A DNA stretch of 64,000 nucleotides from the IMG/VR virus record IMGVR_UViG_3300008110_007313; one strand, given 5' to 3'. The stretch comes from a virus. Lineage: Duplodnaviria > Caudoviricetes. Below are positions 1,241 to 2,048 of the stretch, in pieces (the stretch's first letter is position 1; each line of letters starts with the position of its first letter). The position numbers and the translations under genes are program-made. The notes beneath the pieces were generated by a model, which was given only the letters and a program-made list of their open reading frames with translations, was not told the DNA's origin and ran no database searches.

Positions 1241-1264
1241 AAAAGAAAAGCCCCTTGCGGGGCT
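1241..1264 (-). terminator. intrinsic terminator
   Basis: AGCCCC-GCAA-GGGGCT then TTTCTTTT. Confidence 0.85.
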
Positions 1265-1285
1265 CTAAAATGTAGTACTTGAGTA

Positions 1286-1561
1286 TTACTTTTTAGATGT
1301 GGTAGCTGTGTAGGCTTTCATGATGCCTTCACCAAATTTGGTGTAGTCAAATTTCATAGCGTCTTGTGTGGCCTTGACCATTTCTGTGGTCAATGTGGTA
1401 AATGTGTCCATGCTCACTTTGGTGGCCTTTTTGGTGTAGTCAGCTTGAGCATCAATGAACTTGATCATTGCGTCTTTGGCTGTTTCATTTTGAACAAAAG
1501 TATTCACGAAAGTCTTTTTACCGGTTTGTACGGTGTCGATGATTGCGTCTGCTGTAAACAT
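1286..1561 (-). CDS. phasin-like (PHA granule-associated) protein
   Basis: 91 aa, amphipathic helical, A/T/K-rich; PhaR-type box upstream. Confidence 0.55.
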   Translation of the reverse strand: MFTADAIIDTVQTGKKTFVNTFVQNETAKDAMIKFIDAQADYTKKATKVSMDTFTTLTTEMVKATQDAMKFDYTKFGEGIMKAYTATTSKK

Positions 1562-1618
1562 GTGTTTCTCCTAATTTAAGCGAGTTTGCTATAGGACCCG
1601 GCCTATCCAGCGTCCTAT
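1562..1618 (-). promoter_or_regulatory. ROSE-like 5' UTR (candidate RNA thermometer)
   Basis: Bulged-G hairpin ATAGGACGCT..CGGGTCCTAT, then CTCGCT able to pair with SD AGGAG. Confidence 0.6.
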
Positions 1619-1623
1619 GTTGT

Positions 1624-1655
1624 ATTATATATGATAATTTTGCTGCATTGCAACA
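1624..1655 (-). promoter_or_regulatory. promoter with overlapping PhaR-type operator
   Basis: TTGCAA-18-TATAAT; TGCAATGCAGCA at 1641-1652 within imperfect palindrome TGTTGCAATGCAGCA. Confidence 0.55.
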
Positions 1656-1736: not shown

Positions 1737-2048
1737 ATGCTAAAAGCAATTTTTGATTGGTTTAAAAAACCCAGCCCTGCGGCACAAGCGCCAGCAGTAC
1801 AACCAGAAGCTGTGCCCTACAAAGTAGAAGCACCTGCTCAGGTTGCCCCAGTGATAGAAGCCGCACCTGTTGTGGCCGCACCTGCTGACGTTGGCAAACC
1901 TGCAGATGACCGAGTAGAGGCCACTGCCCGACCTGCTCGCAAGCCCCGAGCCAAGCCAGCGGCAAAACCGGCAGCTGGATCAGCAACAAAACCGGCAGCG
2001 ATCACAGCAGCCAAAAAGCCCCAAGGCCGCAAGCCAGCACAAAAATAA
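1737..2048 (+). CDS. Ala/Pro/Lys-rich protein with histone H1-like tail
   Basis: SD AGGAG; KPRAKPAAKPAA..KPAA..AAKKP. Confidence 0.75.
   Translation: MLKAIFDWFKKPSPAAQAPAVQPEAVPYKVEAPAQVAPVIEAAPVVAAPADVGKPADDRVEATARPARKPRAKPAAKPAAGSATKPAAITAAKKPQGRKPAQK

Follow-up and report, generated by a model that had tools for sequence, protein, structure and literature searches.

A small phasin-like gene behind a candidate PhaR-type operator and a ROSE-like leader in an uncultured freshwater jumbo phage

A 91-aa gene of an uncultured large phage from freshwater (lake water) appears to be linked to the carbon-storage state of the host, as judged from comparison with published operators and with homologous phage and bacterial loci. 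Our best reading, to which we assign an even chance when all of its parts are taken together, is that this is a stand-alone early gene of a T4-like jumbo phage, that it encodes a phasin-like amphipathic protein, and that it would be repressed by the PhaR of the host and gated by a ROSE-like leader. That is, the phage would probably read the PHB reserve of its host. The preliminary description of this DNA had proposed a phasin-like gene under a host PhaR-type operator. The operator part of this proposal is well supported, based on three published motifs, the conservation of the palindrome, its presence before bacterial phasin genes and the fact that no phage PhaR was found, while the phasin part is reduced to resemblance only. 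The earlier observation is confirmed in this form: the case for the operator is stronger than first stated, and that for a phasin is weaker. The ROSE-like leader, a second palindrome and the PAKK tail of the neighbouring gene product are additions to the preliminary description.

The window, i.e., the whole 64,000-nucleotide (64 kb) stretch of DNA that was analyzed, also encodes a ribonucleotide reductase, ClpX, a DNA ligase, UvdE, a DnaB-like helicase and a tailspike. No near-identical DNA was found in cultured phages and there is no close cultured relative; by helicase similarity, the nearest cultured phages are Pseudomonas jumbo phages of the PA5oct type (46.5% identity), followed by Agrobacterium Atu_ph07. 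The features of the locus on which the following analysis is based are:

1247-1266, minus strand: intrinsic terminator-like hairpin and T-run 3' of the coding sequence (8-pair stem with 5 G-C pairs, loop of 4, T tail)
1286-1561, minus strand: coding sequence of the 91-aa protein P0001, stop codon included (ATG start; amphipathic, all-helical product)
1567-1572, minus strand: Shine-Dalgarno (SD) sequence AGGAGA, a strong SD
1567-1584, minus strand: leader hairpin II of the MFE fold, in which the anti-SD CUCGCU, with a bulged G, pairs with the SD AGGAG
1591-1618, minus strand: leader hairpin I, a stem-loop of 11 pairs located at the predicted mRNA 5' end or adjacent to it
1624-1629, minus strand: predicted -10 hexamer TATAAT (TATAAT or TACAAT is kept in homologous loci)
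1640-1656, no strand assigned: PhaR/PhbF-type palindrome, the candidate operator (core TGCTGC-ATT-GCAACA on the plus strand, 1641-1655)
1648-1653, minus strand: predicted -35 hexamer TTGCAA, inside the left arm of the palindrome
1669-1686, no strand assigned: second palindrome, TTAGTGA-N4-TCACTAA, perfect, between the divergent genes and ~15 bp upstream of the PhaR-type box
1737-2048, plus strand: divergent neighbour of 103 aa (N-terminal amphipathic helix, APYKVE motif, basic AKP/PAKK-type tail)

The 91-aa gene is predicted to be monocistronic, with its own sigma70-type promoter (TTGCAA-N18-TATAAT), its strong SD and its own terminator. The family of its product comprises more than 1356 clusters at 90% identity in metagenomes, and our comparison was based on 80 homologous IMG/VR loci (on contigs of up to 364 kb), which provided 63 distinct upstream regions and encode proteins with identity down to 60%. 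A single RNA run contained only low-depth, 151-nt contigs of relatives, from which neither the expression level nor the start site could be read.

As the preliminary description had reported, TGCAATGCAGCA is found at 1641-1652 on the minus strand, where it overlaps the predicted -35, and the Bradyrhizobium consensus that it had given, TGCRNYGCASMA, is exactly the PhaR consensus published by Nishihata et al. for Bradyrhizobium diazoefficiens based on DNase footprints and GLAM2 (PMC6201568). The 12-mer pattern alone is not significant (one occurrence in the window vs. 1.73 expected, and at least one in 77 of 100 shuffles). It sits within a 15-17 bp palindrome, TGNTGC-N3-GCANCA, which covers the predicted -35 and the spacer of the 91-aa gene, and the sole exact match of TGNTGCNNNGCANCA in the 64 kb is the one at 1641-1655. 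The candidate operator agrees with the Bradyrhizobium consensus at 12 of 12 positions and, on the plus strand, with the footprinted PhbF motif of Herbaspirillum seropedicae, TG[N]TGC[N]3GCAA (PMC3206438), at 13 of 13 positions. Agreement with the palindromic Ralstonia motif, YTKNTGCRNYGCANMAR, extends to 16 of 17 positions, with three mismatches being allowed by the source paper (PMC12849132). In the circuit to which the latter motif belongs, phaP is repressed by PhaR until nascent PHB granules sequester PhaR (PMC12849132).

The box that the preliminary description had singled out is retained upstream of most phage homologues. TGC-N3-GC[A/C] occurs at -125 to -60 in 45 of the 63 distinct regions (~70%), on the core promoter, and the Herbaspirillum form of the motif in 39 of the 63, in a constant position relative to the ATG (-88 to -94); the flanks of the homologous loci contain six matches to the latter form in 441 kb. 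When the regions are aligned on the palindrome, the arms (TGTTGC / GCAACAT) are information-rich and the three central bases are free. The left arm serves as the -35 in most loci. L014, L030, L031 and L049 differ in having TTGACT as a -35 of its own, with the palindrome located in the spacer and running into TATAAT. A palindrome that shifts relative to the promoter elements, yet always overlaps them, behaves as would be expected of an operator. Among the distinct homologous promoters, ~17% are box-less and ~10% carry a TGC-N4-GCA variant. In each of three full relatives (300-364 kb), the only exact match on the two strands is the one at this gene, and a looser 15-mer gave one further exact site, in G002. 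The palindrome is therefore unique or nearly so in each phage genome searched, which rules it out as a phage promoter-class motif (e.g., MotA-box-like). As a separate observation, the N3 palindrome is replaced in L009, L017, L021, L047, L076 and L077 by TGC-N4-GCA forms further upstream, e.g., TGCTGCGACCGCACA. These forms are reminiscent of the CTGC-N3/4-GCAG sites reported for the PhaR of Rhodobacter and may mark a different host clade.

The same palindrome is also present in bacteria. The exact phage consensus, ATGTTGC-N3-GCAACAT, was scanned against one genome per prokaryotic species and matched at least 120 loci. Among the 120 matches listed, 92 ORFs were found just downstream, 12 of which belong to Phasin_2 (best E-value 1e-29), making this by far the commonest downstream family among the matches listed, at roughly 100 times the expectation from gene frequency. 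Beta-, alpha- and gammaproteobacteria are all represented among the bacterial Phasin_2 loci behind the palindrome. Those from Burkholderiales have a two-box layout like that of R. eutropha, in which one box precedes the -35 and the start site carries the exact palindrome; in a lake betaproteobacterium (L109), the palindrome lies over the -35, like in the phage. The GC content of the palindrome-bearing bacterial loci carried no informative host signal. A side observation concerns the phasin promoters of L166, L164, L091 and L113, where TTGCTGCAGCGCAACAAAA precedes the -35 and an exact ATGTTGCAGTGCAACAT follows just after TATACT in a fixed layout; this two-box layout of the Burkholderiales phasin promoters could be a ready-made search pattern for the PhaR regulon.

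PhaR is encoded in all five palindrome-bearing Burkholderiales genomes tested. On the phage side, no PHB_acc_N domain was found in five related phage genomes, four of which are at least 95% complete, and no PhaR-like sequence was matched by tblastn in the 64-kb window. A host PhaR-type repressor is therefore the most economical reader of the palindrome, and we consider it the likeliest one from the comparisons described above. The operator half of the PhaR hypothesis is, by these comparisons, well supported. Specifically, the phage locus is like the PhaR/PhbF/AniA-phaP circuit (PMC12849132; PMC3206438; PMC6201568) in that a palindromic TGC-N3-GCA with the same flanks lies over a sigma70 -35/-10 in front of a gene for a small amphipathic helical protein, and in that the identical 17-mer precedes real bacterial phasin genes. 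It is unlike that circuit in being part of a lytic-type jumbo phage that encodes no PhaR, in having one box where Burkholderiales phaP promoters have two or three, and in that Phasin_2 membership is not demonstrable for the regulated protein; binding of PhaR at the phage locus is a prediction from the sequence of the box.

Downstream of the promoter, the leader RNA is a covarying two-hairpin, ROSE-like structure that masks the SD. The CUCGCU of hairpin II contains the U(U/C)GCU motif of ROSE elements, defined together with the short two-hairpin ibpA thermometers of Pseudomonas (PMC3669281), and the AUG is free. Across 60 distinct leaders, hairpin II is paired in 95.6% of cells, with C-G/U-G alternation and one compensatory pair, and the C/U alternation among relatives is exactly what the ROSE motif permits. 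Hairpin I shows two-sided changes, for instance at columns 26/34 (GC 23, CG 14, AU 13) and columns 20/39 (AU 33, GC 15). Taking all 16 pairs of the leader in the 60 leaders, 91.7% of cells are paired vs. 83.1% in shuffles and 31-60% in slid controls, and there are 82 cells with double changes vs. 24.8 expected from the shuffles. The Rfam model ROSE_3 (RF02523) matches over its full length (model positions 1-69; 24.1 bits, E-value 0.006), at a score below the gathering score of 43. According to a thermodynamic estimate, the SD would be paired to 97% at 5 °C vs. 79% at 37 °C, its unpaired fraction rising from 3% to 21%, from which we infer that the leader may be thermosensing. Scans with ROSE_3 returned nothing usable in 151 sampled Gammaproteobacteria or in five genomes each of phages and Burkholderiales; the controls were also without a match, which makes these scans uninformative.

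The phage leader resembles the Pseudomonas ibpA thermometers (PMC3669281; ROSE_3, RF02523) in length (~56-60 nt), in the succession of hairpins I and II, in the pairing of the SD with U(U/C)GCU, in the bulged G and the free AUG, and in the compensatory G-C/C-G pairs of its hairpin I. It differs from them in preceding a gene that is not an sHsp gene, and in following a sigma70-type promoter with an operator rather than a sigma32 promoter.

The amphipathic ORF of the preliminary description, at 1286-1561 on the minus strand, is real. Its AF2 model (pLDDT 85.5) is all-helical, with a short helix (residues 2-22) followed by a 64-residue helix (residues 26-89), and its mean hydrophobic moment of 0.297 is at the level of phasins (0.302 for 12 real phasins vs. 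0.190 ± 0.035 for shuffles, 1 of 500 of which reached the observed value). By model and hydrophobic moment, P0001 is thus a small amphipathic alpha-helical protein of the phasin-like kind. The phasin fold or family that had been suggested was not recovered by profile searches or Foldseek, given scores below the Pfam cut-off, a similar result for the reversed control and structural matches to generic helices only. Specifically, P0001 itself has no match to Phasin_2 (PF09361) at E ≤ 10, and a six-frame search of three full phage records with the Phasin_2 HMM was also without a match. No Pfam family other than Phasin_2 recurs among the relatives; it is matched by 22 of 116 (11 of 44 plus 11 of 72; best E-value 1.2e-4), and these weak matches share one register, with phage residues ~12-72 on profile positions ~33-95; the cut-off of 24.9 bits is reached by no relative, the best score among relatives scanned singly being 20 bits. 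An HMM built from the 12 bacterial phasins gave the family a median of 8.2 bits, vs. 4.8 for reversed and 1.2 for shuffled sequences. In hhalign, the family aligned to the 12 real phasins with a P-value of 0.0065 (Prob 5.8%), and the reversed family with a P-value of 0.011, so that the signal may be largely, or even only, one of amphipathic-helix composition and character.

The nearest named clusters in the Atlas (language-model) search are Phasin_2, PHB_acc and PHA_synth_III_E, each of which comprises granule proteins, with scores of 0.84-0.87 that serve as leads only, and the lead to PHB_acc was not borne out when the family was aligned to PhaR by hhalign (P-value 0.29). Nothing meaningful was found for P0001 in PHROGs, NCBIfam or PDB sequences, and tblastn against 50,697 phage records gave a chance-level match only. 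Fold searches (Foldseek against PDB, ESM Atlas shapes, VIA wide) returned generic long helices and coiled coils, with Z-scores of up to 8.3 that amount to noise for helical models. The family is otherwise purely viral. P0001 is like members of Phasin_2 (PF09361), e.g., PhaP1 of R. eutropha, in being small, all-helical, equally amphipathic and preceded by a PhaR-type box, and unlike the Burkholderiales PhaP1 in having about half the length and in that all of its scores are below the curated cut-off. P0001 therefore seems phasin-like in make-up and context, with membership in Phasin_2 being unproven.

A few additional observations on this family are worth recording. Many of its members are labelled 'ATP phosphoribosyltransferase' by JGI, a label to which sequence, Pfam and fold give no support and which looks like a spread annotation error. 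In the search of representatives, one relative of 161 aa (P0131) is a tandem duplication of the 90-aa domain; that is, the module can be repeated head to tail. Only one longer fused form of the family was found, which is a probable artefact, and among the representatives the long matches P0170 and P0190 are repeat artefacts and P0177 is a chimera.

The divergent neighbour of the 91-aa gene has no Pfam, PHROG or Atlas family. Most homologous loci share its architecture, although some relatives have a TM helix in place of the N-terminus. Its lysine-rich tail and hydrophobic or amphipathic N-terminus correspond to the architecture of the granule-nucleoid tethers PhaM and PhaF, whose tails define the PAKKA/AAKP type (reviewed in PMC9049629). 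The neighbour is like PhaM of R. eutropha and PhaF of P. putida in combining such an N-terminus with a PAKK/AKP, histone-like tail, and unlike both in being much shorter (~100 aa), in carrying the APYKVE motif and in lacking a Pfam or PHROG match; the likeness is one of architecture only. The APYKVE motif looks invariant, and some relatives insert a cysteine motif, CGCGRS..G.CVGLHKLT..EW.

Between the two divergent genes, the second palindrome occurs once in the window vs. 0.12 expected. Most homologous loci retain it, and those full phage genomes that carry it have their only exact copy at this locus. It was matched in 11 of 401 Burkholderiales genomes, no more than a reversed-pattern control, and a common Burkholderiales factor is therefore not indicated as its reader.

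Taken together, our best reading would work as follows. Because no PhaR was found in the phages searched, the host PhaR would be the protein that occupies the palindrome, where it would block RNA polymerase as long as the cell offers no free PHB surface. Once PHB granules are being built, they would draw PhaR onto themselves and the 91-aa gene would be transcribed, with translation being further gated by melting of the SD hairpin in response to temperature or another destabilising cue. The 91-aa product would then act at the granule surface in a phasin-like manner, and may work with the divergent neighbour, whose membrane- or granule-type N-terminus and PAKK tail recall PhaM and PhaF. Candidate gains for the phage would be the mobilisation of carbon, the displacement of host granule proteins or the titration of PhaR. 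A bolder version, possible and put forward here tentatively, is that a widespread group of freshwater jumbo phages carry their own PHB-granule module, that is, a phasin mimic under PhaR control and ROSE gating plus a divergent PhaM/PhaF-like tether, with which the virus senses the build-up of the storage polymer and remodels or taps the granules.

The main rival to repression by PhaR is that the palindrome is a real operator read by another dimeric regulator, either of the phage or a non-PhaR regulator of the host, and that the protein is an abundant early helical factor unrelated to PHB granules (e.g., a host-takeover, chaperone-like or nucleoid-associated protein). Such a scenario would fit a protein that stays short of Phasin_2 membership, and the second palindrome at 1669-1686 shows that the intergenic region is read by at least one factor not yet named; in addition, PhaR and PHB are assumed for the host, the TGC-N3-GCA core is short and box-less relatives exist. 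However, the extended palindrome is that of the operators of bona fide bacterial phasin genes, where it is enriched ~100-fold, and it fits three experimentally derived PhaR motifs. Its uniqueness or near-uniqueness per genome argues against a phage promoter class, and all the recurrent protein-family signals point to PHB-granule proteins. We thus consider this alternative rather unlikely.

It is also conceivable, and in our view improbable, that the 91-aa gene mainly encodes a stress-controlled, chaperone-like protein and is regulated chiefly through the ROSE-like leader, in the manner of small heat-shock genes, with the PhaR-like box being secondary or vestigial. The leader is indeed more conserved than the operator and is retained in box-less loci, ROSE elements classically control sHsp genes (PMC3669281), and IbpA itself is a granule protein with phasin-like behaviour (PMC10646324). 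Against this, the ROSE_3 score is below threshold and the predicted melting is gradual, there is no match to alpha-crystallin or another chaperone family, and the operator arms are clearly constrained in most loci. The latter constraint bears as well on the idea that the match is a relic or a coincidence, with the left arm kept as the -35, the rest kept by shared ancestry and no repressor acting, to which the chance frequency of the 12-mer in the window and the relatedness by descent of the homologous loci would be agreeable. Yet the right arm, located in an otherwise unconstrained spacer, is no less conserved than the left one, in contrast to the variable centre. The palindrome also keeps its overlap with the promoter in loci that have TTGACT as a separate -35, and the loci diverge down to 60% protein identity, all of which make a relic or coincidence very improbable. 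Hence, we favor control by the host PhaR, at the even chance given above for the complete reading.

Phages are known to carry metabolic genes; to our knowledge, few phages read a specific metabolic sensor of the host through the sensor's own operator. A full-text search of the literature found no paper on phage phasins or on PhaR-controlled phage genes. If PhaR controls the 91-aa gene, infection would be tuned to the carbon-storage state of the host in lakes, where the family is very common (more than 1300 clusters at 90% identity), and, if the granule-module reading is true, it would be the first demonstrated case of a virus gene under a host storage-polymer sensor. With PhaR in control, the promoter region would also join a PHB-responsive operator to an RNA thermometer in one compact, natural unit, the protein would be a minimal candidate (90 residues) for granule binding, which is of interest for PHA biotechnology, and the locus would help to place the hosts of uncultured jumbo phages, a large group, among the PhaR- and PHB-positive proteobacteria.

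Finally, a 78-aa ORF lies at 946-1182 on the minus strand; its product is rich in Tyr, Asp, Arg and Gly and without a family match. It is preceded by a promoter at 1238-1210, TTGACT-17-TATAAT with TG, that is, with a near-consensus extended -10.
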